Source: an uncultured delta proteobacterium
GTDB lineage: Bacteria > Myxococcota_A > Polyangia > Polyangiales > Houyiibacteriaceae
Reading direction: 5' to 3'
Assembly (NCBI GenBank): GCA_963699755.1
Contig: CAVOVB010000001.1
Span: forward strand, 384,001 to 448,000
Length of the DNA stretch: 64,000 nucleotides
Positions 5,534-61,632 of this stretch are shown here, piece by piece. Below the pieces are notes generated by a model, which saw nothing but the letters and a program-made list of their open reading frames with translations, was not told the DNA's origin and searched no databases. A program made the position numbers and the translations under genes. The stretch's first letter is position 1. Every line of letters starts with the position of its first letter.

Positions 5534-5627
5534 CATCGCGAATTCAAGCGCTCTGTCCGCGCGGGACGCCGGATGGCACAACCAGCCAGTACCGCGCAAT
5601 TCGATGGACCCAATCGGTTAAGAGAGC
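5534..5627 (+). repeat. Dispersed oriIS/xrs-like repeat, copy A
   Basis: CATCGCGAATTCAAGCGC ... CAG-TACCGCGCAATTCG ... CCCAATCGGTTAAGAGAGC. Confidence 0.65.
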
Positions 5628-5657
5628 AAATGCCGCGATCATGGCGGCGAACATCTA

Positions 5658-6713
5658 GTGACGGAAAAGGTTGTGGGGAACGACACCGCTTGGACTGCGA
5701 GCTTCCTCCTTTCTACAGACCTTCCATCGATCGCTTGGCCGACTAACATCCCCTTCGAGCCTCCAGTCCCAACGATGCTAGATCAGCAAAGCGATCGCAT
5801 GAACATGAGCGCCGAACTGCCCGACCTGGACCTCGCCGTTCGCGTCGGATACGAGATCTCCTACGAGGCCGCGGCGGCGACGCCCGCGCTGGCGACACTC
5901 AAGCCCCGTGAGGATTCCTTTCAGGCCATACGGGAGGAAAGCATTTCTTTCCAGCCCGGATTGGAATGGACGGAGTTCGAAGACGACCACGAGAACACCG
6001 TCTATCGACTCGTCCTGGAACCCGGTCTGAACGTCCTACGTTACGACGCGATCGTGAACGTCCCCAGCCAACGCGAAGACTTCCTTTGGCTCGACGATCC
6101 GCATCCGCCCCACCTGCTGCCGGCCACCATCCTTCGCTACACGGCGCCGTCGCGCTATTGCGACTCCGACAAGCTCCTCGACTTTGCGTGGAACCATTTC
6201 GGGCACCTCCCCAACGGGCTCGAACGCATCCGCGGGATCTGCACGTGGCTCAACGCCAATATCGAGTATCGCACCGGATCGGGTCGCTCGGATCTGTCGG
6301 CCTGGGAAGTCATCGAGCGCCGCTACGGTGTCTGCCGGGATCTCGCTCATGCCGCTGTCGCCCTGTGCCGTGCGTTCAACCTCCCCGCCCGGTATGTGAG
6401 CGGCTTCGTGCCCGACATCGGGGTTTTAGACCCTGGGACGATCCAAGATTTTCATGCGTACTTCGAGGTCTACATGGGAGGCCGTTGGCAGGTTTTCGAC
6501 GCGCGATTTCTCGATCCCCGTATCGGCCGAATTCGGATCTGTGCTGGTTACGATGCCGTGAACTGCGCGGTGAGCACACTCTACGGCGCGGCCGCCCTCA
6601 CCGGGTTCTACGTTTGGTCCTACCAGGTCGATCCCGCCGAGGTGCGGGTCGGCGACCCCTTGGATCTCTCCAAACGCCTTTGCGGCACCCTCGAGATCCG
6701 TCACCACCGGTGA
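5658..6713 (+). CDS. Transglutaminase-like family protein (true start probably downstream, ~5775-5805)
   Basis: PSRYCDSD, GVCRDLAH, PARYVSG, DFHAYFEVY, FDA catalytic Cys-His-Asp motifs. Confidence 0.88.
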   Translation: MTEKVVGNDTAWTASFLLSTDLPSIAWPTNIPFEPPVPTMLDQQSDRMNMSAELPDLDLAVRVGYEISYEAAAATPALATLKPREDSFQAIREESISFQPGLEWTEFEDDHENTVYRLVLEPGLNVLRYDAIVNVPSQREDFLWLDDPHPPHLLPATILRYTAPSRYCDSDKLLDFAWNHFGHLPNGLERIRGICTWLNANIEYRTGSGRSDLSAWEVIERRYGVCRDLAHAAVALCRAFNLPARYVSGFVPDIGVLDPGTIQDFHAYFEVYMGGRWQVFDARFLDPRIGRIRICAGYDAVNCAVSTLYGAAALTGFYVWSYQVDPAEVRVGDPLDLSKRLCGTLEIRHHR

Positions 6714-6759
6714 GGAAGGGGGGAGATCGCTCACGCGAGCTTAGCTCAGGGGGCGACGC

Positions 6760-7026
6760 GAGCTTGCCCCGCCCAGCTTGTTCATCGCATTCCAAATCGA
6801 ATCGGGCTGATTCGGAATCGTCCCTACGCCACGGCCACGAGCCCGGCCGCATTTTCCTTCCGCCACCGTGATCGTGTCCGCGTGCACATCCGATTCCACG
6901 CACGTCCAGCTTGTTGCATGGCTCGACACGACCGACGCCCTTCGCATGTAGCTCTGCGCTACGGTCTTTTCCGATTCGGAGCGTACACTCCGGTCTGCGA
7001 TCGGAGTCGGTCGCTACATCCTGACT
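6760..7026 (-). mobile_element. IS110-family (IS1111 group) left-end remnant with 5' transposase fragment
   Basis: Near-identical to ~48470-48725; DVHADTITVA...GTIPNQPDSI; subterminal IR GGTCGCTACAT 7009-7019; CT core 7025-7026. Confidence 0.85.
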
Positions 7027-7073
7027 AGTACCGCGAAATTCGGCACTCCGCATGAGCCCATGGTCTAAGAGAC
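7025..7073 (+). repeat. Dispersed repeat copy B (distal half, cut at CT by IS1111)
   Basis: CTAG-TACCGCGAAATTCGGCACTCCGCATGAGCCCATGGTCTAAGAG. Confidence 0.75.
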
Positions 7074-7130
7074 TCGCATCATCGCGGCCTTCTTGCGGGG
7101 AGGAACGTACGGCGTATATGCCCCGGCCGG

Positions 7131-8357
7131 ATGCAGGACTCGGGACCTAGGTCGAAGCGCAGAGTCGGACCCATGGCCCTCGCGGCCGTGGCTCTCGGCG
7201 CGTGCAGCGCTCCCCGTGCGGCGGAGGCCCAGGCGGGCGGAGACGCGACCAGTGTCCAGGCCGCCATGAAGCAGACCGAGCGACAGGTCGCCGAGGGTCT
7301 CAGCAGCGACTACAGGCTGGAGTTTGGCGATACCGATGACTGGATCGAGCTCAAGACAGGTGAGTGGCTGAGGGGCGACCTCCAGTGGCTGCGTCCAAAA
7401 GGGCTCGAAGCCGGCAAGAACGTAAACTTCTACAGCAACAAGCTCGACAGCCTGACGCTTAGTTGGGGGAGCATCGCCGGCGTCCATTCTCCCAAGATCA
7501 AGAGCTACGTGTTCAAGAACAAGACCACAGTCTCGGGCAAGGCCATGATCACCAAAGACCTGGTCATTGTCGAGACCAACGAAGGCGTCGTGACACATCC
7601 TCGCAGTGAGCTCGCCTCCATCTCCGAGGGACCGCCTCGGGAGCGGACCTGGTGGTCGACGATGCTCAGCCTCGGGTTCTCTGCCAATGCGGGAAATACG
7701 AACCAGGGTTCGCTCACCACGCAATGGAGTCTGTCGCGCCAAGATGGCCACTCGCTCGAAGCGGTCAGCTACAATGGAACCGTGGCGTACACCGACGGCG
7801 AGCTCAACGTCAATCGGCACCTCGGCGACCTCGATACCGCTCTGTTCCTCTGGGACAGTTTCTACCTGATTCCGGCCGACGCGCAGCTTCTCCACGATGC
7901 GTTCCAGAATATCAAGCTGCGAGCGACTCCAGGCGTGGGGGCCGGGGTCTATGTCTTCAAGAAGACCCGGCAGAGAAGGAACCATACGAACCAGTTCGAG
8001 TGGGACATGCAGAGCGGTCTTGGGTATCAGTTTCTCAGATTGATTTCGACCGTACCTGGAGTCGACAACCCGCAGAACGATGGATTCATCATGTTCCGAA
8101 CTCATTGGAAACTGGAGTTTCTGAATGACAACGTCGAGCTCACCATCGACTGGCGCAGCAACCTCGTCTATACGAGCTTCGGACAGACGAACCACACGGG
8201 GACGGTGGACGTGAGCATCGAAATCACGGACATGTTCAACTTCGTCAACTCGTTCCTCTTCCTGCGAACCCGGGATCCAGAGCCACGATCGGACGGGACC
8301 GTGCCCAGGAAGAACGACTATCAAGTGGTCGTCAGCCTCGCCATCAAGATCAATTGA
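7131..8357 (+). CDS. DUF481-like outer-membrane beta-barrel protein
   Basis: Signal peptide; DWIELKTGEWLRGDL N-domain; GNT motif; amphipathic strands to C-terminus. Confidence 0.7.
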   Translation: MQDSGPRSKRRVGPMALAAVALGACSAPRAAEAQAGGDATSVQAAMKQTERQVAEGLSSDYRLEFGDTDDWIELKTGEWLRGDLQWLRPKGLEAGKNVNFYSNKLDSLTLSWGSIAGVHSPKIKSYVFKNKTTVSGKAMITKDLVIVETNEGVVTHPRSELASISEGPPRERTWWSTMLSLGFSANAGNTNQGSLTTQWSLSRQDGHSLEAVSYNGTVAYTDGELNVNRHLGDLDTALFLWDSFYLIPADAQLLHDAFQNIKLRATPGVGAGVYVFKKTRQRRNHTNQFEWDMQSGLGYQFLRLISTVPGVDNPQNDGFIMFRTHWKLEFLNDNVELTIDWRSNLVYTSFGQTNHTGTVDVSIEITDMFNFVNSFLFLRTRDPEPRSDGTVPRKNDYQVVVSLAIKIN

Positions 8358-8451
8358 CACCATCCAAGTCGGGGAGCGCCCGCGGGGTGCGTAGGCTCAT
8401 CGAGCGAGACATCTTGACATTCTGGGCCAGCGCAGTGACCGCGCTCAGGTC

Positions 8452-8596
8452 ATGGGTGCACATCACAAAGCCGTAGGAATCATCACGCTCTGCGTCATTG
8501 TGCTGCTGCCGGGCAAACTATCCGCGCAAGATGAGGGCATCCAGTCGGAGACGCTGCGGGTCGGTGTGGTCGAGTTAGAGCGGTTCGCGATGAAGG
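8452..8596 (+). pseudogene. 5' end of solute-binding-protein-like gene cut by IS3
   Basis: Signal peptide then TLRVGVVELERFAMK; stops at the IS3 left end. Confidence 0.45.
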
Positions 8597-9840
8597 CCGT
8601 CAGAAGAACTCGGAGACAAGAGGGCTCTGAGTTGAGAGACACTTTGCCGAGGGCGAGAGCCCTGCTGAGGAGTGTGCCATGCCGAGAAGAGAAACGCTTC
8701 GAGTGAGGCCGCCGTGCGTGACATCTGTCGCAAGACGCGCTGGAGGTTTTCTGCGGAAGAAAAGATCCGGATCGTGCTCGACGGCCTGCGCGGTGAGGTC
8801 AGCGTGGCCGAGTTGTGCCGACGCGAAGGTATCGCCGCGAATCTGTGCTACCGCTGGAGCAAGGACTTCCTCGAGGCCGGTAAGGAGCAGCTGAGCGGCG
8901 ACACGGGGCGGGAGGCGACGAGCACCGAGGTCAAGAACCTGCGAACCGAAAACAGTGAGCTCAAGGAGGTCGTGGCGGAGATGACGCTCAAGAACCGTGT
9001 GCTCAAAAAAAGTCTGATGGGTCATGGCGACAAGGACGGCACATGAGACGCCGTGCATCCGAGATGGAACCAAGTCCCCGAGAAGGTCCGGGCCGAGGTG
9101 ATCGATTTGGCCCTCAAAAAGACGGAGCTTTCAGCCCGGGAGCTCGCGTGCCACTTCATCGATGAGCGCCAGGATTTCCTGAGCGAATCGAGCGTCTACC
9201 GCATCCTCAAGGCCGCCGATCTGATCACGAGCCCGGCGTACGTCCTGATGAGTGCGTCGGACCGCTTCAAGCATCCGACCAAGCCGGTACACGAGATCTG
9301 GCAGACCGACTTCACGTACCTGCGGGTCATCGGCTGGGGCTGGTACTACCTGTCGACGGTGATGGATGACTTCGGTGCATAGCGTCCGAGTCCGCCACCG
9401 ACCGAGGCTCCTGAGCGACAACGGTCCAGCCTACGTCTCGAAGGACCTGCAAGATTACCTGCAGGAACAGGGCATGACGCACACCCGAGGTCGCCCTTAC
9501 CACCCGCAAACACAGGGGAAGATCGAGCGCTACCACCGCTCGATGAAGAACGTCGTGAAGCTACAGCACTACTACTTCCCGTGGGAGCTGGAGGCAGCGG
9601 TGCGCGATTTCGTCGCCTACTACAACCATCGCCGCTACCACGAGTCGCTCGACAACTGCACGCCGGCGGACGTGTACTACGGCCGGCGCCACCGGGTCCT
9701 GTCCGAACGGGACAAGATCAAGCAGCTTACGATGCAACGTCGCAAAAAGGAGTACCGGGCCGCAAACGCGCGCCTAGGCCAAAACCATGAACCGTCTCTT
9801 AGCAAACGCGCCCTCTTGTCCGAAATCTTCTGGCGACGCA
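8597..9840 (+). mobile_element. IS3-family element, internally deleted
   Basis: orfA ~8672-9046 (RFSAEEKIRIVL...VAELCRREGI); orfB pieces WQTDFTY, SDNGP, QGKIERYH; imperfect IRs; sister copy at 62475-63969. Confidence 0.9.
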
Positions 9841-9873
9841 CAGCGCGCGAGATTACAGGGCCCAGGCGCTTCG

Positions 9874-11025
9874 TCAGTTGAGTGGCAGTGTGAGCACAGG
9901 CCCGGCTTTCCTCACGTTTCCGGACTGCAGCTGGAAGAGCTGATCGAGCAAGTTGAACGTCGACTTCGAGTTGAGGTCCGAGTCGTCGATGTAGAACCAG
10001 GTCCCTCGATACTCCACACGAACGAAGGCGTGGTTTGGGACCTGGTCGCTCGAGGCGACCCGAAACAGCGCATCGGTCAAGACTGGCCATTCGAACTCGG
10101 TCCCGTTGCGATATCGGGTCACGGTCACTTTGCCGGCTTCGACGTCCTGCGGCGGCGGCTCGACGCCCTGGGAGAGATAGCTCATCACGCCGATGAGCGC
10201 GCGCGGCAAAATGCCGATTTCGCGAGGCGAGCGATAGGTCGGGTTCGTCGTCAAGAAGAACTCGTTGAGGTCCGACCGGAGGCCCAGAATCTCTTTCAAG
10301 CGTTTCGATTGCTCCGCGATCTCGGGAGCGTCCCCGAATACCAGGGTCATTACAAAGGGCGTATCTGGGTCCCCGAGCGGGATCGTGCCGAGGGCCTCTT
10401 CGGGACCGAGGCGCCGGTAACGCAAATCCAAAGCGTCGGCCTGGCTCATTTCGTCGAACAGTGTTGCGACTTCGACGAATCGCTCGAAGTCCGGCGCGAG
10501 ATCAGGCGTCGGCCCAGCCGCAGTGGGCGCGTTCCACACGTCGTTGATCCGTTGGACACAGCAGCGGAGGAGACGTTCGAACCGCCAACCCGAGTGACTG
10601 AGGAGCACAATCGCCCCCATCGGCACGGGGGACAAGAGGCGGTTCACGAACGTTTCGCCTTGAAGCGGCGTGTACGTGATGGTGGGTCGGTCTTCGTAGT
10701 ACACGTCGCCGCCAACGCCACCCACTGCTTTGCTACCCCGCCCACCGATTCCGCCCACCGATGCGGAGCCTGCAACACCCATCACGTACTGGGTCGCGAC
10801 GCTCGACACTTCGATGAAATAGGGGGTGTCGCGATAGCGGAGTCGGACGAGGTTGGCGAGCATCTGCTCGTTGCGGGTATCGATGATGGCCGAGTTGTAG
10901 TCGAAGCGCGTGTTTCGGATCGATTTGGGACCGACTTTCGTGCAACTCGACAGCAAGACCACAGCCATGAGGCAGGCCAGGCGAAGAGGGGAAAAAGGGC
11001 GAGCGATTCGCAGGATTGCCGTCAT
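9874..11025 (-). CDS. Hypothetical lipoprotein
   Basis: 383-aa ORF with lipobox LSSC; RLRYRDTPYF and PTITYTPLQG segments. Confidence 0.7.
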   Translation of the reverse strand: MTAILRIARPFSPLRLACLMAVVLLSSCTKVGPKSIRNTRFDYNSAIIDTRNEQMLANLVRLRYRDTPYFIEVSSVATQYVMGVAGSASVGGIGGRGSKAVGGVGGDVYYEDRPTITYTPLQGETFVNRLLSPVPMGAIVLLSHSGWRFERLLRCCVQRINDVWNAPTAAGPTPDLAPDFERFVEVATLFDEMSQADALDLRYRRLGPEEALGTIPLGDPDTPFVMTLVFGDAPEIAEQSKRLKEILGLRSDLNEFFLTTNPTYRSPREIGILPRALIGVMSYLSQGVEPPPQDVEAGKVTVTRYRNGTEFEWPVLTDALFRVASSDQVPNHAFVRVEYRGTWFYIDDSDLNSKSTFNLLDQLFQLQSGNVRKAGPVLTLPLN

Positions 11026-11145
11026 CTCGCCGCAGAGAGTATCTCAATTCACCAGTTTGTCTTGTCCCGACTCCACAATCTTGGTTGGCCCTTTTCGTTT
11101 CGAATGGGTAAGGAGGTCCCCAAGCATTTGCTTCGGAGGTCGGCC

Positions 11146-11775: not shown

Positions 11776-11784
11776 GGCCCCCGA

Positions 11785-13431: not shown

Positions 13432-13561
13432 CGTTTGGAGGGTCCTTTCGTCCACTGGCTCGCTGAAGCAGTTCGATCTCGCGCGTTTGCCATCTCTTGT
13501 CAAAGAACGATTCGAGTCGTTGGAGCCGCAGGGTCTAGGCGAGCGCTTGGCTTCGCGTCCC

Positions 13562-13900: not shown

Positions 13901-14087
13901 GTCGAGCGTCTGACATCGAGCCCTAGCCAAGGTTCTTGCGAATGCGCCCTGCACGCAGACTGAGGCAGCCGCGCGTGTCGTGGCCCCGGCTTGTTCGAGT
14001 GCGTGCCCGTCTTCGAGTCCATATCGCACGCAAAGCGCCGCACGTCGCTTGGGCCGGAAACAGCGTATGAACGGGCTTCGGGGCGGG

Positions 14088-14189
14088 CCTAGCAGAAGCA
14101 AAGGCCCTGTCGGCACGGTGGCTGGCACGACACAATATCTGGCTACCGCGCAATTCGGCCCTCCGCATGAGCCTGACCGGCTAAGAGGC
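14088..14189 (+). repeat. Dispersed repeat copy C
   Basis: CCTAGCAGAAGCAAAGGCCC ... GCACGACACAA-TATCTGGC-TACCGCGCAATTCGGCCCTCCGCATGAGCCTGACCGGCTAAGAGG. Confidence 0.75.
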
Positions 14190-14924
14190 ATGATCTCCAC
14201 GAGACTTCGCTGGGTCTTGGACGCATGCGCGTCGAGGACTCGCCGGCGCTCGCCCTCGTAGCAAGAGAAGACCTCCTCCGCCGACTCAGAGGATCGCGCC
14301 CCCGCCACGAGACTGGCCCTGAGAAAGCGGCGCCGAGAGAGAAAGCTGAGGAGTTATCAATCCAAAACGTCGAATCGATTCTCCGCGCGTAGGCGATGCG
14401 CGCTGCAGAAGTTGGGCGGGTGCGTGTGCTGGGCTCGCGATGAAACGGGCAACCGACCTTCGTCTAACCCCAACCCTGGCACTTGCCGCGTTCACGATGC
14501 CGGGAGTGCTCAGCGAATACGACGGGCTCGACGGAGGACGCGCCGCGCTAAACCTGCGCTTCGAAGAGATGTTCGGCGAGGCCGGGTACGAAAGTCCTGA
14601 CCTGGGGCGACGCCGGCAAGAAACGCTCGTTTTCCACCGAGCGTATGGAGGCGCCCTCCGAGCCGAAGGAGCTTCGTCGCTTGCATACGACACCATGCTC
14701 GAGCGCGGCAGGATCGCGGTGGACACCAAAGCGCATCGCGCCGAGTGGGAGGCCGTGGATCGACAAGTCCGCGATCGGCTTGCCGGACGGATCTATCCGA
14801 AGCGCTTACTCGACTCCATGATCGCGGCGGTGGGAAAGCCGGAATAGCAAACCGGAACGAAGAGATCTGGTGGCCCCGCAGATCTTCGCTGAGTCTCCTC
14901 CGGAAAGCGGCATCCCGGACTACC

Positions 14925-17250: not shown

Positions 17251-17259
17251 CGTAGGCTT

Positions 17260-22044: not shown

Positions 22045-22242
22045 GGTCACCTCCTCTCCTCATAAAGATTGGTGAATCCTTCTTTAGAGACCGCGGTCTC
22101 CAGACGATCGGGCCGGATGCTAGTGGGGGCGCGCGCAACTGCAAGTCCGATTGGTGCGTGGCGCAAACTTTGCGCGTGTGGGAAACGCGAGTCCATCCTC
22201 ATCTGTGGGCGTCGTTTCGAGCTCCTGGCACAAACCGCGACC

Positions 22243-23190
22243 CGTCCGAAGAGCAAACGCTCCCGCGACGAGGCTGCTTACGATTCGGACCCGCGGCGTC
22301 AGGAACGCTTTGACTTGAAGAGGTCCGCGCTCTCTTGCACCAGCGCTAAGAAGACGGCGCCGAGGCCGCCGAGACGCAACGAACGCACCGGTCCCATGGC
22401 TCCACCCCTGAGGTGAGCGCGGTCAACAAGCCCAAGCGTCGTCGAGCTCGGGGGGTGCTCGAGCGGGCGCAAGCTCGACCGGGTGCGCAGGGAGACCGAG
22501 ATGGCGGAGGATTCCGCGGATGGCGCTCGACAGCATGATGGCGGCCACGAAACGCAGCCGGCCACTGCAGTTGGGGCACTCGAGGACATCGATGTCGAGG
22601 CCGCGGCGCATCAGCTCGGCCAAGGTACGATCGTAGGAGCCGGCGACCTTCCTCGGGCTGCTTGCCGATGATGCGCCGTCGACGCGCAGCCGTCCAAAGT
22701 CCATGACCTCGCGACGCCACTTGGCGTTCGGCGCGAGCATGCCGTGATAAACGATGAGGTTGAAGTAGGGCCGCGGAATCATCGCGGCGAGCTTTTCGAG
22801 TAGCTCCAGGGGCTGAAGGGCAAGGTGGCTAGTCCCATCGCGCCATGGTGTCTTGGGTCGGAGGAGCACGGTTCCAGCAGGTGTAAGGGACAAACGGTCC
22901 TCGGCGACCGCGGCCGCAAGAGATATCGGCAAAGGGGCTCCAGCTTGGAGCGGTTCTTCGCACGGACAGACGTGTTGGCGTGAAGGTCCACGACCACAGG
23001 ACCGCATCAAGACTCGTGCTGGGGTTCGCCCCTGCGTTTTCCACGCGTCTCCGATCGATCGCGCTGAAGCGAGGTGGCGGACAGCGTCGGAAAGCTGGCG
23101 GCCGCTACCCTCGGCACATGCGTGGCCTTGGTCTCACCGAAGCCCCAGCCGCGAGCGTGGCGAAGGCGTCGCCGGCGGCAGGAGTGTCTG
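22243..23190 (-). mobile_element. IS91/ISCR-like rolling-circle element remnant (transposase C-terminal half plus oriIS-like end)
   Basis: LCRY / AEDRLS...KTPWRDGTSH...ELLEKLAAMIPRP...YHGMLAPN...CPNCSG (frameshifted); GAGCGTTTGCTCTTCGGAC on minus strand at ~22244-22262. Confidence 0.8.
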
Positions 23191-25130: not shown

Positions 25131-25235
25131 AGGCGCTCTCCCGACACACGGGACCTTTCGGTGAGCCCGATTGCACAGAACTAGATGTTAGGTCGCGTGG
25201 GGCGCGAAACTGAAAGGGCGTTGGTTCTTCCTAGG
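25131..25235 (-). repeat. Dispersed repeat copy D (inverted)
   Basis: Plus strand ATTGCACAGAA-CTAGATG-TTAGGTCGCGT...GAAAGGGCGTTGGTTCTTCCTAGG. Confidence 0.75.
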
Positions 25236-25242
25236 TTCTCAC

Positions 25243-29076: not shown

Positions 29077-29115
29077 AGCCTCTTAGCTCATCGGGCTCAT
29101 GCTGAGAGAGCGCCT
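29077..29115 (-). repeat. Dispersed repeat copy E (tail only, inverted)
   Basis: Reverse complement CATGAGCCCGATGAGCTAAGAGG. Confidence 0.55.
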
Positions 29116-30038: not shown

Positions 30039-30085
30039 GCTTTCTCCATAGCCGATCGAATCCGTCAAACAAAACACGGCTGGTC

Positions 30086-30160
30086 ATAGCGAATTCAAAG
30101 GCCCTGTCTGCGCTGTGAGTCACGCGACCTAGCATCTAGAACCGCGAAATTCAGCTCACG
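30086..30160 (+). repeat. Dispersed repeat copy F (tail replaced by RAYT flank)
   Basis: CATAGCGAATTCAAAGGCCC ... ACGCGACCTAG-CATCTAG-AACCGCGAAATTCAGC. Confidence 0.75.
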
Positions 30161-30169
30161 GACCGCCGC

Positions 30170-30420
30170 GGAGATCCGACCCACGTTGCCCGACACGAAA
30201 CCGTCGCCACGAAGCCGCCAAGCCCCTCGGAGATCCCGCGGAGATCCCGGAGATCCGACCCACGTTGCCCGGAGATCCCGGAGATCCGACCCACCTTGCC
30301 CGAAACGCAGGGAGCTTTGAGGGATTTGGCTGTGATCTCGTGAAGTGGCGCCCGCCGGCGGCCGCGCACGAAACCGTCGCCACGAAGCCGCCAAGCCCCT
30401 GAAATCACGAGATCCCGGCT
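30170..30420 (+). repeat. Repeat array left of RAYT1
   Basis: GGAGATCCGACCCAC(G/C)TTGCCC x3 (30170, 30249, 30280), GGAGATCCC units, 34-bp direct repeat at 30194 and 30367. Confidence 0.9.
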
Positions 30421-30450
30421 CGGCATGGCGTTCGCTTCTATCGACGCGGC

Positions 30451-33559: not shown

Positions 33560-34070
33560 CCGCAGCACGGTCATCGCATCGGGCGCGGCGGCGTGCCTCA
33601 CGGCGGCAAGCAGTCTCTCCCGTACGCTTCGTCCGCTCCATCGAGGATATTCGAAAGCGTGATTCCACCGAAGGTTCCGGGCCGTTCGCTCTCGAGGAAG
33701 CTCGCCGCGTCCGCATGCACGAGGCGAACCTCTCGGGCCTCAGGAGGCGGCGGCTCGACCGAGAGCTCGCCGAGAAGGAGTGAACGCGCGTACGGGTTGC
33801 TGCGGTTTGGATGGAGAGCGAAGCAGCGTTCCATCCGAGCGCGCATCGCCGAGCCTAGGCGCTTCGGGAGTAAGTCGAGCAGCCGCGACGGCCACCAGCC
33901 TGCTAACGGCGCGAAGAATCGCATGAAGTCCATGATGCGCTCGGCCCGCCCACGGAAACCGGGGTCGCCCGCGAATCGACGCTCTCCGTACGTGAGCTGC
34001 ACCGGATTGATGTCGATGGCCACCACCTCGTGCTCGGGCGCGAGCCTCATCGCCTCTTGGCCCATCAGGC
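33560..34070 (-). pseudogene. DUF3419/BtaA-like SAM-dependent transferase fragment
   Basis: VVAIDINPVQL...NPYAR...VHADAASFLE...ITLSNILD; no proper start. Confidence 0.5.
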
Positions 34071-34211
34071 TCAAGGTGAGAGCCGGTAGGCGTTTCGGAG
34101 CTTCTGACTCTTTCTTAGATCCAAACGGAGGTGTCGCGCGTCCCCTTCGGCGAGAACGGACTGTCGACAAGCGCGACCGTCCTGCGTAATGCAAAGGCCG
34201 GAGGAGCAACG

Positions 34212-35636: not shown

Positions 35637-35761
35637 GTCATCGAAGAGTTCTGGCACCCGGACAGTTTCAGAATCGCCAGAGCGCCAGATCTCTGTAGTT
35701 TCGATTGCGGAAAGGAACGCGTTTGTAGCGGCTATCTTCGCCCATGCGGCGACGTGGGGCT

Positions 35762-35798
35762 GATAGTCGACACAAACGCTCTTTCCGGTTCACGTCCC
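35762..35798 (+). repeat. Dispersed repeat copy G (oriIS half)
   Basis: GATAGTCGACACAAACGCTCTTTCCGGTTCACGTCCC matches 46292-46308 joined to 47791-47810. Confidence 0.75.
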
Positions 35799-35861
35799 TT
35801 CGGCTCGTTGGTGCGACACAACGCCGCCGTCGTGCTCTCCAGCGCCAGCAACGAGCTTCGC

Positions 35862-38479: not shown

Positions 38480-38546
38480 GACATCCAGCTCCATTAGCAC
38501 AGCGAAGCTGGGCGTTTGCGACGAGCCCGACGGGCTAAGAGAGCGC
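38480..38546 (+). repeat. Dispersed repeat copy H (divergent; tail clear)
   Basis: GAGCCCGACGGGCTAAGAGAGCG. Confidence 0.5.
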
Positions 38547-38637
38547 CGGCCTGCTTGAGTCCCGCCGTTTCCTTATCCCTGGCTAGTCTGAGCGTTTTCG
38601 CTTGCGCGTGGCACACTCGAATGGTAGTGAATTCGCA

Positions 38638-46007: not shown

Positions 46008-46308
46008 ATCGAGCTGAAACGAGTCCCGGCTCGAGATCGAACCCGCGGCCAACACGAGGACCCGATCCCCGTCAATCGTTCGTGACGCCTGAGTCCGGGA
46101 TGGCTGCTTCGCTGATACCGGCGCCTCGTGCCTCGGGCTCCCCGGCGGTCGCGTCCCCGGAATCCTTGCATCCAGGACCGCCCTCGATCTTCACGGCATC
46201 GTGCTCGCAGGTGATCTTGTCCGATTTGGCCCTACTGGTGATGAGAAGGCGCATCCGACCGAGTAGCCCCCCTGCTCCCGCCGAGTCAGAGCATAGTCGA
46301 CACAAACG

Positions 46309-47780
46309 CAATGCCGTTCACTTAGGAGTCCCGCGGCGGTTTCCCTTTGCGGTTTGAAGGATACTGACTGGCTTTTCGCTTGAACGCTCTAGGGTAGCGG
46401 CGCGAGGAGCGCCGCTCTGGCAGGAGGAAAAGCGACAGTTGTTGCCGCAAGCGTTTGAGGTGCGTGGGAATGGCTCCCGGCTGAGCCACTGCGCACCAGA
46501 GAAACTCGTCACGAATGAATCGGTGGGACGCGATGAAGCTGATCCTCAGAGGGCTTACGTTCGCTTCCTTTGCGACCTGCTCCATCTCGCGACGCACGAG
46601 GTTGTACGCTAGAAGGACGCCCCACAATTCCTGCCGCACTCCCTGCGGAGTTTGACTTCGCATCGGGACGTTGCGCTCGAGCATGTCGGTCTTGAGCTCA
46701 CCGAAGCCCATCTCGATTTCCCATCGCTCGTGATACAGAGCGATGATCTCTTTTGCCGGATACTTCGTTGGGTCCAGCAACGAGGTCAGCAGCATTTGCT
46801 CCTTTCCACCTTTCATCCGATAGCGGATACGACGCACCCTCCAATGCAAGGGCAGCGTCGGCTCCTTTGCTCGTGTGGCCGCACATATCGTAAACTCCAC
46901 GAGCTCATCGGTGTGGGTGGTGCGCGTGACCACTCTGCCCGTTGTATCCGAGCGTGCACGAACCAGAAAATGGCGATTGGCGCCACCTTGGTGCAACGGG
47001 TGCAACACGTTGGAGGCCTGAAACCCGCGGTCCACAATCGTCAGAGAATCGTCGGGAATCTCATCCCAAAGTTGCCGCGCATAGGTGTGCTCGCCCTGCT
47101 TGCAAGGTCCAAAGGCGACCGCAGCAAGCATCTGTGAACGAAGCGCCATCAACGCAACCGCTCGCATCACGGGATATCCGCTGCCTTCTGGTGCGAGGCG
47201 ACCGACAATGAGTCCGAACTCGTGTCGGTTCGCCTCTGAATCGGGAACACGCAACGACGTTCCATCCACTGCATACAACGCCAGACCACGCCACCGACCC
47301 CGATCGGCGCTTTGATGAGCCCACTTGTTCGCGCACTGCTCAAACAGCCACCGCACAGGCTCTTGTCCCAGCCGCGCTCGAGCCTGCGAAATGGCGCTCG
47401 GAGCCACCGTTACGTGACCCGAGCCGGGCAACGCCAGGTCGAGCTTGTTCACCACGTCCGTGATCGACCGGTCCTTGAACAGCGCCATGCCGAGCACCAA
47501 CCACACCACTTGCTCCGCCGGTAGCCGTCTGCGTCTCAGCGTCGCCGTGCCTGTCGCACGCAGCGCCTCTTCAATCCACTCTCGCGGGAGGTGCTTGCGA
47601 AATGCATCGAGCTCCGGCGGTCCACCTAGACTCGCACAACCAGTGACAATCTCCTGCAACATGGGCCAACCCCCCTCGGTGCTGGCCAGTCTGATCTCAT
47701 CGGCGACCGATTAACAGAACCTTTCCACGCCGACTTCCCAAAGCATTTCGATCACTTCCATCACTAACTGATCGGCATTG
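46309..47780 (-). mobile_element. IS4-family element, apparently intact
   Basis: IRs CAATGCCGTTCACTTAG and CTAACTGATCGGCATTG; 10-bp target duplication GACACAAACG (46299-46308, 47781-47790). Confidence 0.95.
46322..47662 (-). CDS. IS4-family DDE transposase
   Basis: [31 protein letters not shown] (YREK). Confidence 0.95.
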
Positions 47781-47824
47781 GACACAAACGCCCTTTCCGG
47801 TTCGCGTCCCTGGCGACATACCAT

Positions 47825-48725
47825 CTGATATGTAGCGACCTGTCTACTGAGAAGATGGGGTTTGCTTTGTTTCCGTTGTGGTTGGTTGAACGGCTCAAAG
47901 AAGCTGGCGAACAAAGCGACGGTTGACCAATCTGATATTCGTGGATCGACCCGAAGGCCGCCGACATGGTCATCATCCGTCGGGAGCTCGCTCAGACTAG
48001 TGGCGCGAGTTGGGCACGGCCGTGCCTATCGCATAGATGTTTCGAGGCTTGTCCTTCCCGTGGGGATGCTTGCCAGCTTCTTTGAACCGTTCAACAAGGA
48101 GGCCCTGCGTGTTCATCTCGGCTTCGCGCTGCCGCCCGACGGCCCACACAAACCCGGCGAGCTCTCGACTCATCGCGGTCACCGCGGTAAGCATCGCCAC
48201 CCCGCGAAGGCTTTGCAGGGCCAGGACCAGCTCTTGCATCCGTGGCGGCGCCTGCTCGACCGCGCGGTCGAGCGCCTTGTCGAGCCGCGCCACGCGCTCG
48301 GTGGCATGCTCGACTTCGTTCTTGTAGTCCACAAACGTCTCCTCTTGCGCCGTATGGTCGAACACCTGCGAATCGAGCCAACGCCAATGCGCCTGGCCCC
48401 AGGCTTGGCTCTGGATATCTCGACGGCGGCCCAGGCGAAGCAAGAATTCCCCAGCCGGTTCGCCCTGCCGAGCTTTTTCATCGCCTTGCGAATCGAGTCG
48501 GGCTGATTCGGAATCGTCCCTACCCCGCGACCACGACCACGGCCGCCTCCTTCGGCCACCGCCACCGTGATCGTGTCCGCGTGCACATCCAGTCCCACGT
48601 ACGTCCAGCTTGCTGTATGGTTCGACATGACCGACTCCCTTCGTATGTAGCTCTGCGCTACGGTCTTTTCCGATTCGCGGCGTAAACTACGGTCTGCGAT
48701 CGGAGTCGGTCGCTACATCTTGACT
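47825..48725 (-). mobile_element. IS1111-group IS110 element with internally deleted transposase and intact ends
   Basis: YVGLDVHADTI; subterminal IRs ATGTAGCGACC 47830-47840 and GGTCGCTACAT 48708-48718; CT at both junctions. Confidence 0.88.
47885..48095 (-). ncRNA. Predicted seekRNA/bridge RNA in the IS1111 3' non-coding end
   Basis: Closed by ~24-bp inverted repeat; contains AACATCTA and ACTAG (target match) and ATATCAG (donor match). Confidence 0.65.
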
Positions 48726-48743
48726 AGTACCGCGAAATTCGGC

Positions 48744-49791
48744 TGTAAGCCCAATATAGAAATGTCGGGTTTGTGCCAGATTCAAATGTCGGGGTTACCC
48801 GCCCCCGATGGACTCAGGGCTCGTCGTCATGAGCCGGCGCGAGATCGAGCGAGCGCATGTGATGCGCGCGATTGAGGAGCGCCGGCTGACCCAGAAACAA
48901 GCCGCTACGCAGCTGCGGTTGAGCGTGCGTCAGATCGAAGAAGGCATTCGGAAGACTCGTGCGCAGCGTTGCAAACGCATTCAGCAGCCGCGTCACCGTC
49001 GCGATCGCACGGGCGAGCTTGTGCAGATCGACGGCTCGGACCACCACTGGTTTGAGAACCGCGGTCCGAAATGCGTGCTCCTAGTCTACGTCGACGACGC
49101 GACGGGCAAGCTCATGGCGCTCCGGATGTGTGAGTCGGCGTTGAGCTACTTTCACGCGACGCGCGGCTATCTAGAGCGTCACGGCAAGCCGGTGGCCTTT
49201 TACAGGGACAAAGCGGGGGTGTTCCGCGTAATGCCAAGAGTCCCAGGGCCGGCGACGGCTTCACGCAATTTGGCCGCGCCATGACCGACCTCAATATCGA
49301 CGTGATTTGCGCCAATACGCCCGCGGCCAAAGGCCGCGTGGAGCGCGCACACCAAAGGCTTCAAGACCGGCTCGTTAAGGAGCTCCGGCTGCGCGGCATC
49401 TGCACGATGGACGACGCCAATCGGTACTTGCCCGAGTTCATCGAGGACTACAATCGGCGCTTCGCACGGGCCGTCCGAAAACGCCAACAACAAGAAGAAC
49501 AGGAGCTCGTCCGCTCCGCCAAGAGCAAGCGCGAGCAGCGCATCGTGCGCGACCGCTTCGCGGACCGGCTGCCGCCTCCGGGACCCTGAGCCGACCGGCC
49601 CGCGCGAGGCCTACCGACGCCCTCTCAAGCCATCCGCCCTCTTGCCCCCACGGCGACGTTCCCCCAGACGCACCGACGTGTTCGCCCTGCAGAAACCGCC
49701 GTCAGACGCAGCTTCCGGCCGGCCCGCACCCGGCTCCTCCCCGACATTTCAATCTTGGAGAACTAGCCGACGCCTCAGTTTGGTTTTGACA
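48744..49791 (+). mobile_element. IS1202-family (ISNCY) element, degraded
   Basis: TGT...ACA ends, repeated AAATGTCGG/CCGACATTT; GELVQIDGSDHHWFE, VDDATG, AKGRVER; deletions and frameshift. Confidence 0.8.
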
Positions 49792-49829
49792 TGGCGCTCA
49801 CCTTGAGCCCGATGGGCTAAGAGGCGGGT

Positions 49830-51866: not shown

Positions 51867-52062
51867 CGAACGGACGCCCACAGCCCTGAGCTGGTCGACC
51901 CCTTGCGAGTCGTGCGTACGCATCCACCCTTCGCAACCGTCTTCTGTTCGGAGGACGGTTTCGAGCGTTCGCCAAAGTGCCCGGAGCGCTGTGCGGCCCG
52001 CTTACTGCGCTCGCTGCCGTCGCAAGCAGTAGGGGACCGGCCCCCGCCAAACGGACTCGTTA

Positions 52063-52125
52063 CAACTTCAACGTGGGAAGGTCGGGCCGGGCCGTAACTT
52101 CAACGTGGGAAGGTCGGGCCGGGCG
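52063..52125 (+). repeat. Repeat array right of RAYT2 (inverted relative to left)
   Basis: AACTTCAACGTGGGAAGGTCGGGCCGGG x2. Confidence 0.85.
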
Positions 52126-52154
52126 GCGGGCCGGGCGGGGGGGGGTGGGGAGGA

Positions 52155-52400
52155 AGGAGCAGAAGGCAGGCCTCACGGAGTACGAAGCCCGATACATCAA
52201 CGCACGCTCATTTCGACATGCCGCGGTGACCGACATGACCGTGCGTAGCAACGAGCTCGCCAGCGTCTCGTGCCTGGCCGGCCACAAGGACGTGCAGACC
52301 ACCTCACGGTACGTCCATCCACCGTTTGAGGCTAGCAAACGAGTCAACGATGCCCGTTTTCGGGACACCGTTTGGAACACGAGCGAGTTCTACGAAGAAG
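52155..52400 (+). pseudogene. Tyrosine integrase C-terminal relic
   Basis: RSFRHAAVT...LAGHKDVQTTSRYVH (box II and catalytic Tyr). Confidence 0.75.
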
Positions 52401-52429
52401 GCGAAATCGCTAACTCGTTGAAACTACTA

Positions 52430-52472
52430 GCGGACGCGAAGGGATTCGAACCCCCGACTTCTGCCTCCGGAG
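52430..52472 (-). other. 3' half of tRNA-Arg(CCG), att-like
   Basis: Reverse complement CTCCGGAGGCAGAAGTCGGGGGTTCGAATCCCTTCGCGTCCGC. Confidence 0.65.
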
Positions 52473-52933
52473 CCCACTCCGCGATCGCGTTGGCCTGCGT
52501 TTTCTAGGGTTTCGTGATTCCGTCGAGCGTGCCGTAGCGCGCGAGAGTGTTCGGTCTTGCGCGCTCGTGGGATTACTAATCCCACCCGAAGTCGTGCAGC
52601 TGGCCTGGGCCGTGTTGGAGGATAAAAGCGCCACCGAGCGCGAGGTCGAGCTCGCCCGCTGGGCGCTGAGCGCGTGCGCATAGCCACCCCGGGTAACATG
52701 ACATGAGGGACCGCGCATCGGCTCTAGGCTCACTACTCGGCCTATTCGAAGTCGCAGAGGTACATGAGATCGCCCGGATTCGAGCCCGGATACCCGCCCT
52801 CGAGGAAGCGCTCGCTGTTCTCAAACAGAAGAACTCAGAAGACCGATGAAGCCAAGCTTGGGCTCTAGCGATCCAGGTCGTGTAAGCATGCTGGAGCTTT
52901 GATCGGCAGAGGCGCTAAACACATACTCGATGC

Positions 52934-56500: not shown

Positions 56501-56569
56501 CTACAGGCATTCCCTACGTGGTCGTGGACGACTGGTTCCCGGCGGACAGGACGCACCTCGATTCAGGGT

Positions 56570-57110
56570 CGCGGGGAGGCGTTGTCATCCATCCGCTGGC
56601 GAGGCAGATCGCGCAGCGGTGCAAGGAGAAGCTCCTCGAATCGTCCGAGAGGTGACGCTCGGCCCAGGTACGAAAGACCTTCGCCAGCGCTGGAGGTGCC
56701 GCTCACGGACCTCTTCGCGAGCTGGCTGGCAGCGATGGGAGCCGAGGTGTCGAAGGATACCGTCCGCTGCTGGGAGACGTACGCAGCCGCTCATTTCATC
56801 CCGTTCTTCGAAACCTGTTGGGCACCAAACCAGCGATTCCGAGGATTCCGAGACGCGCTACCGGTACGGCCCATCCGAAGGGGAAGCGCGAGACGGTTAC
56901 GCTGACGCCGGAGGAAATGGACGCCATCGTGGCTCAGCTCCCAGAGCGTTCGAAGCTCGGCTATCCGATGCGGGCGTACTACGAGGTGGTGCGAGAAACG
57001 GGGCTTCGGCCTTCGACGCGCAGCATTGGAGGCTAGTCTCAAGGAGTACGAGCCGCAATACATCAACGCACGCTCATTTCGACATGCCGCGGTGACCGAC
57101 ATGACGGTGA
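56570..57110 (+). pseudogene. Tyrosine integrase relic (multiple deletions)
   Basis: LTPEEMDAI...ETGLRPS box I; ~65 bp nearly identical to 52177-52243 (RSFRHAAVT). Confidence 0.7.
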
Positions 57111-59381: not shown

Positions 59382-59712
59382 CCTCCTTGACATCTATAGG
59401 AGCATCAATGCGGTCGCCGAGTCGTTTTTCAGCAGCTTGAAGAAGGAACGGATTCGAAGGAAAATCTACAGGACCCGGGCCGAAGCCCGGGCCGACGTGT
59501 TTGACTACATCGAGGTCTTCTACAATCGAAAGCGGCGGCACAGCCACATCGGAGACATGAGTCCGGCGGCCTTCGAGGCCGTCCTCAGCAACCCTAGCCG
59601 GGTGTCTACGGAAGCGGGGTAAGTCCAGCAACCCTAGCCGGGTGTCTACGGAAGCGGGGGAAGTCCATTTCGACGCGTATTTGACGCGCACTTGGTGAAG
59701 ACCCTCATGTGC

Positions 59713-61152
59713 TCAGCGTCGATGTCGGCCCGCTTGTCTCTCCAAGAAGCGGATGAAGTCGTGCCCGAAGGCATCGTTCGGGCGGAGCTTCGCATAGACA
59801 TTCACCTCTGCCAGCGCCGTTTCGTATTGGAAGAAGCTATGGACGTTGTAGATCGCCGCGTACTTGTAGACGTCGGGATGATTTGGAGCCAGTGTCTTAA
59901 GACGCGTAATCAACGGCATGACGTGAACAGGGCGCCGACCGGTAATCACGTTCAGCCGGAGCAGCGCCATGAGGACCTCGATATCGTCGCTCGCCCGCTC
60001 ATGGGCCTTTTCGAGCGCGCGGATCTGCGCGGCCATTTCTTCGTCCTCACTACACGAGTACCGGTCTTCTCTCGGCAGGGGCAGGTCCTTGCCGCTCGAT
60101 TGGGGTGCGTCCGGAAGGAGCGCGACGTAGGGGTAGTCGCCGCGCGCGATCCACCAGCTCGGGCTGGGTCCCATCACGACGAGGCGGCGCTGGTGCACGA
60201 TGTCGAACTTCCAGCCCGTCGATGTGCGGCAGAACAAGAACGGTGCGTTGTCCCACCCGTCGCGGTTGCCGAACCAGATCACTGCGTGATCCTCGTCCTG
60301 TCGCACCTCGTAGTCGGCCTGACGCCAGTGTGGGAGCGAGCGCACGGTGCGAGGATCGGGGTGGTCGGCGCTGCCCATCGCCATCTTGGTCATCTCGGTG
60401 TACACATCCACGTCGATGTCGGCGCCTTCACCCGCCCACTTCAGCAATAAGGTTTCCCAGGCCTCCTTCGCAGAGCGTGCTCCGAGACGCGCGCCATGCG
60501 GGGCCGCAATCATGGCGTCGTCTTCTTTGCGCCCGTAGCGATCGAGGCTGCGCTTTGCTCCGGCGCCGCCGGAAAGCAGCTCTCGATCGAGCTTGGCGAT
60601 GCGATCGGCGCCGTCTCTCCCATAGTGTTCGAGCTCGGCTCGCTTTTCGATCTCTTCCATGACCGCAGCGAGACCGGTCCCGATATCGCCGGTGAGATAG
60701 TACGGACGCAGCTGCAGATCTTGGATGTCTGCAGTGAATGCATCGGTGAACACGTCTTCGAGCTCGTAGGTCACTTCGAGCTTCACCTGTTTGTCGTCTT
60801 CCACCAGTAGCAGGAGCAACCCGCGCCCATCCTTGTCGCCGCCGATTCGCCAGCGGTCCACGAGCTTGACCGCGACCTCCTCGAGATAGGTCCCTGCCGG
60901 AAGCTTGGGCAAGGTCACGATGACCGCCTCGATTTGGACGCGTTGGGACATTCGGCGCAGAAACCGCCCGATGTTTTCTTCGTAGTGGTGGAGGTCGCCC
61001 GTGTAGTCGAACAACTGACGGCCTATCTCCGGTCGACTCTCGATTGAAAAGCGCTGTAACGGCGGCGTGCTGTGGGTATCCCGGTGTGTGGTCTTCAGCC
61101 CTATAGCAACGAGCCCCGTCACCAAAACCCCAGCGGCGATCAGCCACCTCAT
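59713..61152 (-). CDS. TPM (DUF477) domain protein with extended, TPR-like C-terminus
   Basis: WRIGG..GRGLLLLL, LEVTYELEDVFTD, SGGAGA. Confidence 0.75.
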   Translation of the reverse strand: MRWLIAAGVLVTGLVAIGLKTTHRDTHSTPPLQRFSIESRPEIGRQLFDYTGDLHHYEENIGRFLRRMSQRVQIEAVIVTLPKLPAGTYLEEVAVKLVDRWRIGGDKDGRGLLLLLVEDDKQVKLEVTYELEDVFTDAFTADIQDLQLRPYYLTGDIGTGLAAVMEEIEKRAELEHYGRDGADRIAKLDRELLSGGAGAKRSLDRYGRKEDDAMIAAPHGARLGARSAKEAWETLLLKWAGEGADIDVDVYTEMTKMAMGSADHPDPRTVRSLPHWRQADYEVRQDEDHAVIWFGNRDGWDNAPFLFCRTSTGWKFDIVHQRRLVVMGPSPSWWIARGDYPYVALLPDAPQSSGKDLPLPREDRYSCSEDEEMAAQIRALEKAHERASDDIEVLMALLRLNVITGRRPVHVMPLITRLKTLAPNHPDVYKYAAIYNVHSFFQYETALAEVNVYAKLRPNDAFGHDFIRFLERQAGRHRR

Positions 61153-61245
61153 TCGTGCCCCATGAGCCGCTGGGCTCCGTTCCCCTCCCATGCCCTCAGT
61201 CTAACGGGTGATAGATCTGCCTCGCAAAACTGGGCAGGTCTTTGT

Positions 61246-61283
61246 GAGCTCATCACCCAAAGGTCGCCGGTTCAAATCCGGCC
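61246..61283 (+). other. Degenerate tRNA-Met(CAT) 3' part
   Basis: GAGCTCATCACCCAAAGGTCGCCGGTTCAAATCCGGCC; no acceptor end. Confidence 0.6.
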
Positions 61284-61531
61284 TTTTCGGCACTTGCTGT
61301 CTCCTGCTGGCGAAAAACACGCTGCCAAAGCTGAGCTCGTTGAACGGCGTTCGGAAATGGGAAGCAGACGAAGGAGATCCGACCGACGTTGACGGAAGCG
61401 AAGGCCGATGGGAGGGCTAAGCACCAAGCCGTCGTGAGCCGACCGGGCACCCGAGTTGCTCGGCGAAAGCCCTCCCAGCCTCGTTGCCGGCGGCGTTAGT
61501 GCTGATTCGGGCGCATATGGGAGAGCTGGCA

Positions 61532-61632
61532 GATAGTCGATATGAACGCCTTTGAGGTTCACGTCCGGCGCGACATGAGATCTAGTACCGCGTAATTCAG
61601 ACTTCCGACTGGGCCCAATCGGCTAAGAGAGC
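61532..61632 (+). repeat. Dispersed repeat copy J (complete, uninterrupted)
   Basis: GATAGTCGATATGAACGCC..GGTTCACGTCCGGCGCGACATGA-GATCTAG-TACCGCGTAATTCAG..GGGCCCAATCGGCTAAGAGAGC. Confidence 0.8.

Follow-up and report, generated by a model that had tools for sequence, protein, structure and literature searches.

A dispersed repeat of an uncultured Polyangiales-like genus as a probable ISCR/IS91-type transposon end with a built-in mimic of the host dif site

A repeat of ~105 bp is dispersed through the window analysed here, a stretch of 64,000 nucleotides (positions 384,001 to 448,000 of contig CAVOVB010000001.1, assembly GCA_963699755.1). Its host is an uncultured Polyangiales-like (Myxococcota) genus. 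We consider it probable that this repeat is the oriIS-side terminal module of a lineage of the ISCR/IS91 family, that it carries a built-in mimic of the host dif, and that it would take part in one-ended capture of DNA and in Xer-type exchange. From the transposase outward, the module would consist of 1) an inner GCGTTTGTTTGCCGG motif, confined to transposase-adjacent copies, and a hairpin-capable block 3; 2) the dif mimic, made of a XerC-like arm, a spacer of 7-8 bp, and a XerD-like arm, followed by a second small hairpin; and 3) the outermost oriIS terminus, ..GCGTTTGT.TCGACTAT, with ~4 further nucleotides. Hereafter, the genome under study is called G000, and the window lies on its contig C1.

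The repeat was first noticed in the letters of the window, where an original prediction listed about ten related copies with up to three blocks each. The order of the blocks is indeed fixed. Outermost is a stretch that is led by ATAG and contains ..ACAAACGCCCT.., next comes an 11-7-11 core (for example GCGCGACATGA-GATCTAG-TACCGCGTAAT), and last GAGCCC-N3-GGGCTAAGAG. Reading each named copy showed that this order and the quoted 11-7-11 strings were correct, the second block being degenerate in the copy at 5532. A covariance model (R1), made from 15 copies (alignment A1) and run on the window with filters off, returned 28 rows at E<=5, among which the 13 matches at E<=1e-3 include all ten places named, and revealed in addition a block 3 tail at 34053-34085(-). 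Counting once the copy that is split by insertion sequences (IS), eight sites of the window are in '+' orientation and three in '-'. The alignment and profile suggested as a check gave the same picture for the entire genome: an nhmmer profile of 5 window copies has 43 matches at E<1e-3 in 5.35 Mb, the best of which reaches 2.7e-23. Chance is ruled out at the profile level. The short core word alone is not significant, with 10 matches at <=2 mismatches vs a shuffle mean of 4.4 and 2/100 shuffles reaching 10. The predicted 7-bp spacer holds, the range in the family being 7-8 bp, and the copies are mostly non-autonomous, as supposed, the majority being solo ends without a transposase.

A number of observations associate block 1 with rolling-circle transposition. 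First, the genome encodes two complete IS91-family transposases (Zn_Tnp_IS91 plus Y2_Tnp; 476 and 492 amino acids by the call of open reading frames (ORFs)), along with three fragments. The complete proteins score 61.6-63.5 bits for Zn_Tnp_IS91 and 73-84 bits for Y2_Tnp in Pfam, all over the cut-offs, and the top NCBIfam match is 'ISCR element clade Ia' (E 4.6e-110, 368 bits, which is under the 925-bit exception cut-off of the model). Second, each complete transposase gene has the repeat ~110 nt past its stop codon, in reverse orientation and with the ATAG / ..CTAT end outermost, so that one reads GCGTTTGTTTGCCGG, block 3, core, and block 1 ending in ..TCGACTAT after the stop codon. Third, 13 of the 17 relatives with a transposase at least 74% identical have an R1 match at the same position, and distant relatives (36-60% identity, from several phyla) have ..TTCCTATC-like termini downstream of the gene, such as ..CTTGAACTTCCTATCC. 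The ISCR layout described in passages of PMC13393415 places oriIS downstream of the gene, terIS with a promoter upstream, and diverse genes beyond oriIS. Because the position past the transposase, the ..CTAT terminus, and the ends of the relatives all match this published anatomy, block 1 is, judging from its sequence, an oriIS-type end of the IS91/ISCR kind. Both the oriIS-like nature of block 1 and the presence of matches downstream of full IS91-like transposases had been anticipated, and both are borne out by the complete elements. The window itself retains a C-terminal fragment of such a transposase (22391..23010, - strand; Pfam Y2_Tnp E 2.9e-7; tblastn, blastn), whose DNA is 78-82% identical to the complete copies on C7, C2, and C1 and which has lost its own oriIS repeat.

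The comparison of block 2 with the host dif, which the original prediction had called for, gave a positive answer. The host encodes XerD (C3:404354-405211, 354.9 bits, over the curated cut-off) and has a second, XerC-like gene (C5:26049-26933, 286 bits). To locate dif, the full genome was scored with a degenerate dif consensus, and one candidate stood out, C3:687011-687038. The corresponding sequence of the genus is ATTTCGCAGAA-N6-TTATGTAAACT. It is found at <=3 mismatches in 32 of 41 genus genomes, in one copy each except for G021, which has two, both at contig ends; its variation is confined to the 6-bp centre, and a reversed control gave 0 matches. The GC skew on contig C3 shows no turning point at this locus at 10-kb resolution, so that it is conservation across the genus that leads us to regard C3:687011 as the dif of the genus. 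In reverse complement, the core of the repeat reads ATTTCGCGGTA-CTAGATG-TTATGTCGCCT, to be set against ATTTCGCAGAA-CCTATA-TTATGTAAACT for dif. Over 51 aligned copies, the arms agree with those of dif at a median of 8/11 and 7/11 positions, and certain copies of the relaxase type (see below) reach 19/22 with a perfect XerC arm. A genome scan for the two arms at <=4 mismatches and 6-8 bp apart returned dif and four copies of the repeat, against 0 in five shuffled genomes. Among distant relatives of the transposase, a word resembling the XerD arm occurs within 300 nt past the gene in 8/38 loci vs 9/584 control windows, the word having been picked after viewing the sequences; in two of these relatives (L085 and L058), sites read by eye are 19/22 identical to the genus dif, with spacers of 7 and 6 bp. 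Block 2 is thus best described as a putative dif-like mimic of the host's site.

Insertion sequences provide an independent view of this site. According to PMC10132070 and bioRxiv 10.1101/2022.12.17.520857, elements of the IS1202 family are found next to pdif and dif sites, 5 bp away on the XerC side. In three copies of the repeat in this genome, the XerC-like arm is followed after 5-6 nt by the end of an ISNCY/IS1202-family IS (TGTAAGCCC..), and the XerC arm of the true dif is followed at this distance by an IS of the same family in each of the five genus genomes examined, this one included (L131 1045-2645; also L128, L129, L130, and L132). The third IS of the split copy belongs to the ISNCY family, a full copy scoring 483 bits vs a cut-off of 250. 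A family reported to seek Xer sites thus inserts at one offset in both cases, and treats the repeat as it does dif. If the published IS1202 targeting applies here, its reach would extend to Myxococcota. A different IS, an element with an IS110-family RNA-guided transposase, sits inside the core spacer.

Side observations concern the same insertions. The IS110-family element is found in dif-like spacers at window 47803-48723 and 6753-7028, at L035 590-2105, and at G000 C7:29626-31198; its right end imitates the XerD-like half, and the window copy has two internal deletions. An IS4-family element has inserted at an identical point of block 1 in two different copies (window 46309-47779 and G000 C1:1554887), the window one being flanked by an 11-bp duplication. 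We also considered an attC-like single-strand fold for the site and rejected it: the consensus fold was empty, and single copies gave z from +1.2 to -3.6 on either strand, most of them between +1.2 and -2 (simple shuffles).

The repeat is a family of this genus. The genome totals 43-48 copies. Of 36 other genus genomes, 34 have R1 matches, from 1 to 54 per genome; in other families of the order, 1/24 genomes has the family. Copies cluster in few islands at a spacing of 1-8 kb, and the genes between sites are ordinary transport, metabolic, and regulatory genes. Arrays of G000 lie on C1, C2, C5, and C7. Three arrays illustrate their orientation: that of G031:C5 has 14/14 sites in '+' within 44 kb; that of G014:C4 has 9/9 in '+' over 20 kb, beyond which come the transposase (-), an integrase (+), and, last, housekeeping genes; and on G000:C7, 9/10 sites are in '-', on the downstream side of the integrase and transposase genes. 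In G014, four of the array sites, among them the one adjacent to the transposase, are identical over ~100 bp.

Tyrosine recombinases are found at two types of element with this site. A gene of the phage-integrase family lies divergently upstream of the transposase on C7 and at the end of C1, and the transposase/integrase pair is intact in G014, where the integrase has 394 amino acids. This integrase is a simple Xer-like tyrosine recombinase, with weak scores against the XerD, XerC, XerA, and IntI models. The second type of element encodes, in this order, an integrase, a NikA-like protein, and a TraI/MobA(P) relaxase. At its end, a different left half precedes a XerD-like arm, spacer, XerC-like arm, and block 3 that are those of the repeat; it shares the dif-like half and block 3 with the repeat, not block 1, and has no HUH transposase of this kind. 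Full-length paralogues of the integrase are 34-58% identical (tblastn). Towards the left ends of the relaxase elements, DNA conservation is limited to ~1.6-1.8 kb, covering nikA and relaxase, and a search there revealed no second, matching site. In the sections of bioRxiv 10.1101/542381 that deal with them, tyrosine recombinases inside IS91 elements are grouped with integron integrases / IntI. Given that the lineage has its own Xer-like integrase and that int-nikA-relaxase elements share the dif-like half, host XerCD is one candidate recombinase among others, and the core may be acted upon by host XerCD, by the element's Xer-like integrase, or by both. Two integrase remnants lie in the window: a phage-integrase-family fragment at 51977..52507 (+; Pfam Phage_integrase E 1.3e-5; blastn, tblastn) and a second one at ~56559-56815, with 88% identity to the N-terminal portion of the C7 integrase that neighbours the transposase.

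Movement of a module could be resolved in one instance. This was in G011:C13, where 5.5 kb have been inserted into an intergenic spacer that is continuous at three other loci. The insert ends in block 3, core, and ..GCGTTTGAACTCGCTAT plus GCTC, with its cargo on the block-3 side; the repeat is present at one end only, the other end is arbitrary, and 32 bp of the spacer were replaced. One-ended transposition of the ISCR type, starting from a solo oriIS and taking cargo on the block-3 side, would predict such a product. Within the window, the modules are 85-95% identical to their counterparts elsewhere in the genus, and the genomes concerned share further blocks with G000 at 71-84% identity, mostly 75-80%. 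The original prediction had placed all copies in intergenic DNA, between unrelated modules. This position stands, with the qualification that only some module borders fall exactly on a copy, namely those at 7071-7087, 25235-25251, 34084, and 35750; others lie 50-740 bp away. A miniature repeat, comparable to a miniature inverted-repeat transposable element (MITE) or a repetitive extragenic palindrome (REP), could insert alone into intergenic DNA with no role in moving genes, in which case the modules would be ordinary rearrangement blocks. This would suit the sharp borders of solo copies on both sides, the up to 54 copies per genome in the genus, and the module borders without a copy, of which there are several (e.g., 16880/16929). 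It is nevertheless a very improbable account: in the site pairs and genus-wide DNA searches described below, the two flanks of a solo copy never adjoin each other without it, the copies are clustered in few islands rather than spread genome-wide, and the sole resolved insertion moved 5.5 kb along with the end.

The two halves of the site are mosaic. The identities of left and right halves between copies are correlated only weakly (r = 0.21), and 6/1225 pairs are discordant, including pairs with a left half at 97% and a right half at 66%, or a right half at 100% and a left half at 49%; in the window, the copy at 61531 matches that at 5532 at 90% on the right and 35% on the left. Such mosaic halves fit an exchange at or near the core. 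They bear on two further explanations. According to one, rolling circle would suffice: the 105 bp would be the oriIS recognition region of the HUH protein, arrays would arise by repeated one-ended transposition and 'sandwich' capture, and the likeness to dif would be due to chance or serve the transposase, with no tyrosine recombinase acting. The position and terminus of the repeat are indeed those of an ISCR oriIS, the G011:C13 insert requires one end only, and capture between two sequential oriIS has been described for ISCR28 (work cited in a portion of PMC12772301). Furthermore, four sites of the G014 array are identical, and solo copies start just after an inner GCGTTTGT motif; this motif repeats the terminal one, and initiation at one with termination at the other could therefore release a 105-nt unit. 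We nonetheless regard this explanation as unlikely, since int-nikA-relaxase elements have the dif-like half and block 3 without block 1 or such a transposase, the copies are the best dif look-alikes of the genome after dif itself, a dif-targeting IS family uses one offset on both, and the halves are mosaic.

The same mosaicism would be expected if accretion were driven by the integrase. The repeat would then be the attachment (att) site of the element's tyrosine integrase, integrative and mobilizable elements would pile up in tandem with remnants like cis-mobilizable elements (CIMEs), the IS91-family transposase would be a passenger, and block 1 would be an att arm. In favour of this, two element types with little in common except related integrases have the same site half, arrays end at an integrase in G014 and G000:C7, and arrays are in a single orientation. 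On the other side, block 1 ends in an oriIS-like manner in relatives of many phyla that have no integrase nearby, the spacer that received the 5.5-kb insert had no prior site and just one end of the insert has one, and the relaxase elements examined are not bracketed by directly repeated sites. This makes integrase-driven accretion a distinctly doubtful explanation.

We thus return to an oriIS end with a built-in dif mimic as the preferred reading, under which the following scenario can be proposed. The HUH transposase would nick at the ..CTAT end and replicate inward; solo ends would be driven in trans and would carry along the DNA on the block-3 side, in one-ended, ISCR-like capture. The resulting circles would each bear one dif-like site, at which a tyrosine recombinase (XerCD of the host and/or the Xer-like integrase of the element) could integrate them at resident sites, excise them, or exchange them. 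Modules would in this way become stacked in one orientation beside a master element, with site halves of unmatched ancestry.

Several observations weigh against this reading. Some concern the transposon. The C2 and C7 elements are homologous up to the start of the transposase gene, with no common upstream end, and no terIS was identified in them. IS91 inserts beside a specific tetranucleotide, GAAC/CAAG. The outer flanks of ~60 copies of the repeat show no consensus tetranucleotide beyond the element's own G..(C/G) and NTAG, and the single resolved insertion, in G011:C13, does abut CAAG. Others concern the site and its enzymes. The spacer of the core has 7-8 bp vs 6 in dif, and the XerD-like arm agrees with dif at just 7/11 positions at the median. 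Although 73% of the cells in the hairpin columns are paired, vs 24-42% when partners are slid, covariation in the hairpins (that of block 3 and the small one before the XerD-like arm) is reached by 204/500 shuffles. The arrays lie elsewhere than the chromosomal dif at C3:687011, and on contig C3 the nearest repeats are those at coordinates 10-39 kb and 476-493 kb. Box I is missing from the integrase that adjoins the transposase on C7, and an integrase beside the transposase is found in genus-level relatives only. The remaining ones concern movement. Homologues of the window modules in other genomes are mostly without a flanking repeat (1/8 loci have one; a second set is mixed). No empty site was found in 943 in-register pairs of 87 sites or in four genus-wide DNA searches, and no circle junction or recombination product was found in the genus genomes and metagenome contigs. 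Four sediment-metagenome contig sets compared with window 4001-16000 contain no joint at two sites; one metagenome contig joins 7025 to 11140 on opposite strands, with just 35 nt on its shorter side. Finally, the genome assembly has an estimated contamination of 9%. On the side of movement and exchange stand one clean insertion and the mosaic halves. Most copies are solo ends that mark junctions in gene islands, and the role in gene capture or shuffling put forward by the original prediction would be a plausible one for them.

A broader hypothesis goes further and is advanced tentatively, as a possibility that we hold to be appreciably less likely than the reading above. The repeat might underlie a two-enzyme platform for gene accretion, in which HUH copy-out from any solo oriIS would produce circles of [dif-like site + genes] and Xer-type paste-in at resident dif-like sites would build integron-like multigene stacks, all in one orientation and beside a master element. 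The built-in Xer site might then be an old and general feature of one ISCR clade that follows the host dif, as is suggested by dif-like words beside oriIS in several phyla.

The individual copies of the window range from complete modules to short remnants. A complete solo copy lies at 61531..61636 (+; R1 E 5.8e-22; sequence read). Its outer 4 nt and ATAG are at 61529-61536, and block 1, the oriIS-like end, extends to ~61567. There follow the XerD-like arm GCGCGACATGA (61568-61578), the spacer GATCTAG of 7 bp (61579-61585), the XerC-like arm TACCGCGTAAT (61586-61596), and the block 3 hairpin region, which ends in ..GGCTAAGAGAGC and extends to 61632. Two other complete solo copies are at 14086..14192 (+; R1 E 8.1e-23; sequence read) and, in opposite orientation, at 25131..25236 (-; R1 E 2e-20); the ATAG outer end of the latter, at 25236, is the left border of a CorA-MscS module (25235/25251-28649). 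The solo copy at 5532..5630 (+; R1 E 1e-16; alignment A1) has a degenerate XerD-like arm and a shortened block 3. The copy at 30083..30179 (+; R1 E 5.7e-18; sequence read) has block 1 and the core, lacks block 3, and passes straight into tandem GGAGATCC.. repeats.

Other copies are halves, tails, or pieces. At 6753..7077 (+; R1; direct-repeat families D1 and D7), an IS110-family element and a copy meet at the core spacer, the right end of the former being followed by the right half of the latter: the IS end spans 6753-7028, the repeat half 7025-7077 (R1 match 6994-7077), and a DUF481 module begins at 7071-7087. In metagenome contigs of runs X2 and X3, the right half at 7025 has non-IS sequence upstream in place of the IS. 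A DUF4139 module lies between two remnants, its start at 34084 adjoining the additional block 3 tail at 34053..34085 (-; R1 E 1.2e-4; inverted repeat I7) and its end at 35750 having directly to its right a left half with block 1 and hairpin 1 only (35761..35821, +; R1 E 5.6e-4). A further block 3 tail is at 29078..29108 (-; R1 E 1e-3; inverted repeats I17 and I23), and a degenerate right half, with a weak XerC-like arm and block 3, at 38495..38547 (+; R1 E 7.3e-6; direct-repeat family D2). The claim that one copy is split by three IS is confirmed for 46292..49825 (+; R1 pieces 46292.., 47781-47829, 48693-48750, and 49793-49825). Its block 1 starts at 46292-46308 and is interrupted by the IS4-family element (~46309-47779; transposase 46322-47662, -); the rest of block 1 and the XerD-like arm follow at 47781-47802; the deleted IS110-family element occupies the spacer (~47803-48723); and the XerC-like arm (48724-48744) is separated by the ISNCY/IS1202-family element (~48745-49790) from block 3 (49793-49825).

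The surroundings of these copies show further rearrangements. A 5.2-kb block containing DabA (G000 C1:382042-387232, extending in the window to 3232) is 90% identical to G026:C3:607982-613171, the remaining blocks common to the two genomes being 71-84% identical, mostly 75-80%; in G000, the block stops inside a cysD-like gene, which is truncated. G026:C3 is the closest match to the flank and shares just this 5.2-kb block, so that the borders of the island cannot be set. At window 11112, ~85 bp of intergenic spacer are absent in comparison with three other loci, and it is the same spacer that bears the 5.5-kb insert in G011:C13. A nitric-oxide-reductase cluster (VWA, CbbQ/NorQ, NorB, NorC) at 16929-22150 has a second copy, 89% identical, at G000 C1:1813876-1819095; its left border at 16929 is sharp in many genomes and has no copy of the repeat. 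Two inverted IS3-family copies (8591-9842 and 62475-63975; 85-98% alike by segment, most at 94-98%) bracket 52.6 kb with most copies of the repeat, and recombination between them could invert this stretch. A multi-copy gene of 305 amino acids without a Pfam match lies at 30170-31368 and is preceded by the tandem GGAGATCC.. repeats. It has a weak match to a REP-associated tyrosine transposase (E 5e-6, below the cut-off) and further copies at C4:177542, C11:72267, C6:10714, and C1:282759, and a repeat related to GGAGATCC.. is found at 61373-61416. An exact 76-bp tandem duplication with 34-bp sub-repeats, at 31525-31734, lies just upstream of an ORF for a Na+/H+ exchanger and overlaps its start.

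The assembly of gene clusters, including resistance clusters, is commonly attributed to ISCR elements, and the way in which DNA arrives beyond oriIS is still argued. A copy of dif on the oriIS end, along with dozens of solo ends in ordered stacks, suggests a route that can be tested, namely rolling-circle copy-out and Xer-type paste-in, and this harmless environmental myxobacterial genus is a natural system to test a link between IS91/ISCR and Xer. A search of the full-text literature, with most subscription journals outside its scope, found no publication linking an IS91/ISCR end to an Xer site.

The repeat has points in common with four known systems and differs from each of them. It is like ISCR/IS91 elements (ISCR1, ISCR2, ISCR28) in its HUH Y2 transposase with an N-terminal zinc domain, in an oriIS that is downstream and ends in ..CTAT, and in the diverse unrelated genes that abut the oriIS side, for which capture between successive oriIS is proposed in parts of PMC13393415 and PMC12772301. 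Relative to the published ISCR layout, the dif mimic inside the oriIS region is a probable difference. The repeat further differs in solo 105-bp ends forming same-orientation arrays of 9-14, in the divergent Xer-like integrase that accompanies the transposase, in its Myxococcota chromosome host, and in a cargo of ordinary transport and metabolic genes. The dif modules of Acinetobacter plasmids and chromosomes have flanking sites in alternating (inverted) orientation, whereas ours are mostly in direct orientation (arrays of 14/14, 9/9, and 9/10), have spacers of 7-8 bp, are fused to a rolling-circle transposon end, and come with element-encoded integrases. Otherwise the pdif/xrs modules are alike: they are gene modules bounded by 28-bp-type XerC/XerD sites resembling the host dif, and IS1202-family elements insert 5 bp from the XerC arm (PMC10132070; bioRxiv 10.1101/2022.12.17.520857).

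The integrative mobile elements exploiting Xer (IMEX) differ from the present stacks, which lie away from the chromosomal dif, would have a transposon for vehicle, not a phage, and involve no folded single-strand form. IMEX, of which the Vibrio phages CTX, VGJ, and TLC and the gonococcal island are examples, use XerCD at dif; like the repeat, they associate HUH rolling-circle circular DNA with a dif-like site and form tandem stacks separated by dif-like sites. Integrons, finally, are alike in their one-orientation array of ~100-bp sites between unrelated genes, with a tyrosine recombinase at one end and IS110/IS1111-type elements that target the site; here, the sites have no attC-like fold, the units are multigenic and of 0.5-8 kb, and the integrase is weak against IntI models. 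Compared with ISCR, dif modules, IMEX, and integrons, the novelty is a fresh combination of known parts, and the repeat connects three fields that are usually apart: IS91/ISCR transposition, dif modules and IMEX, and integron-like cassette arrays.

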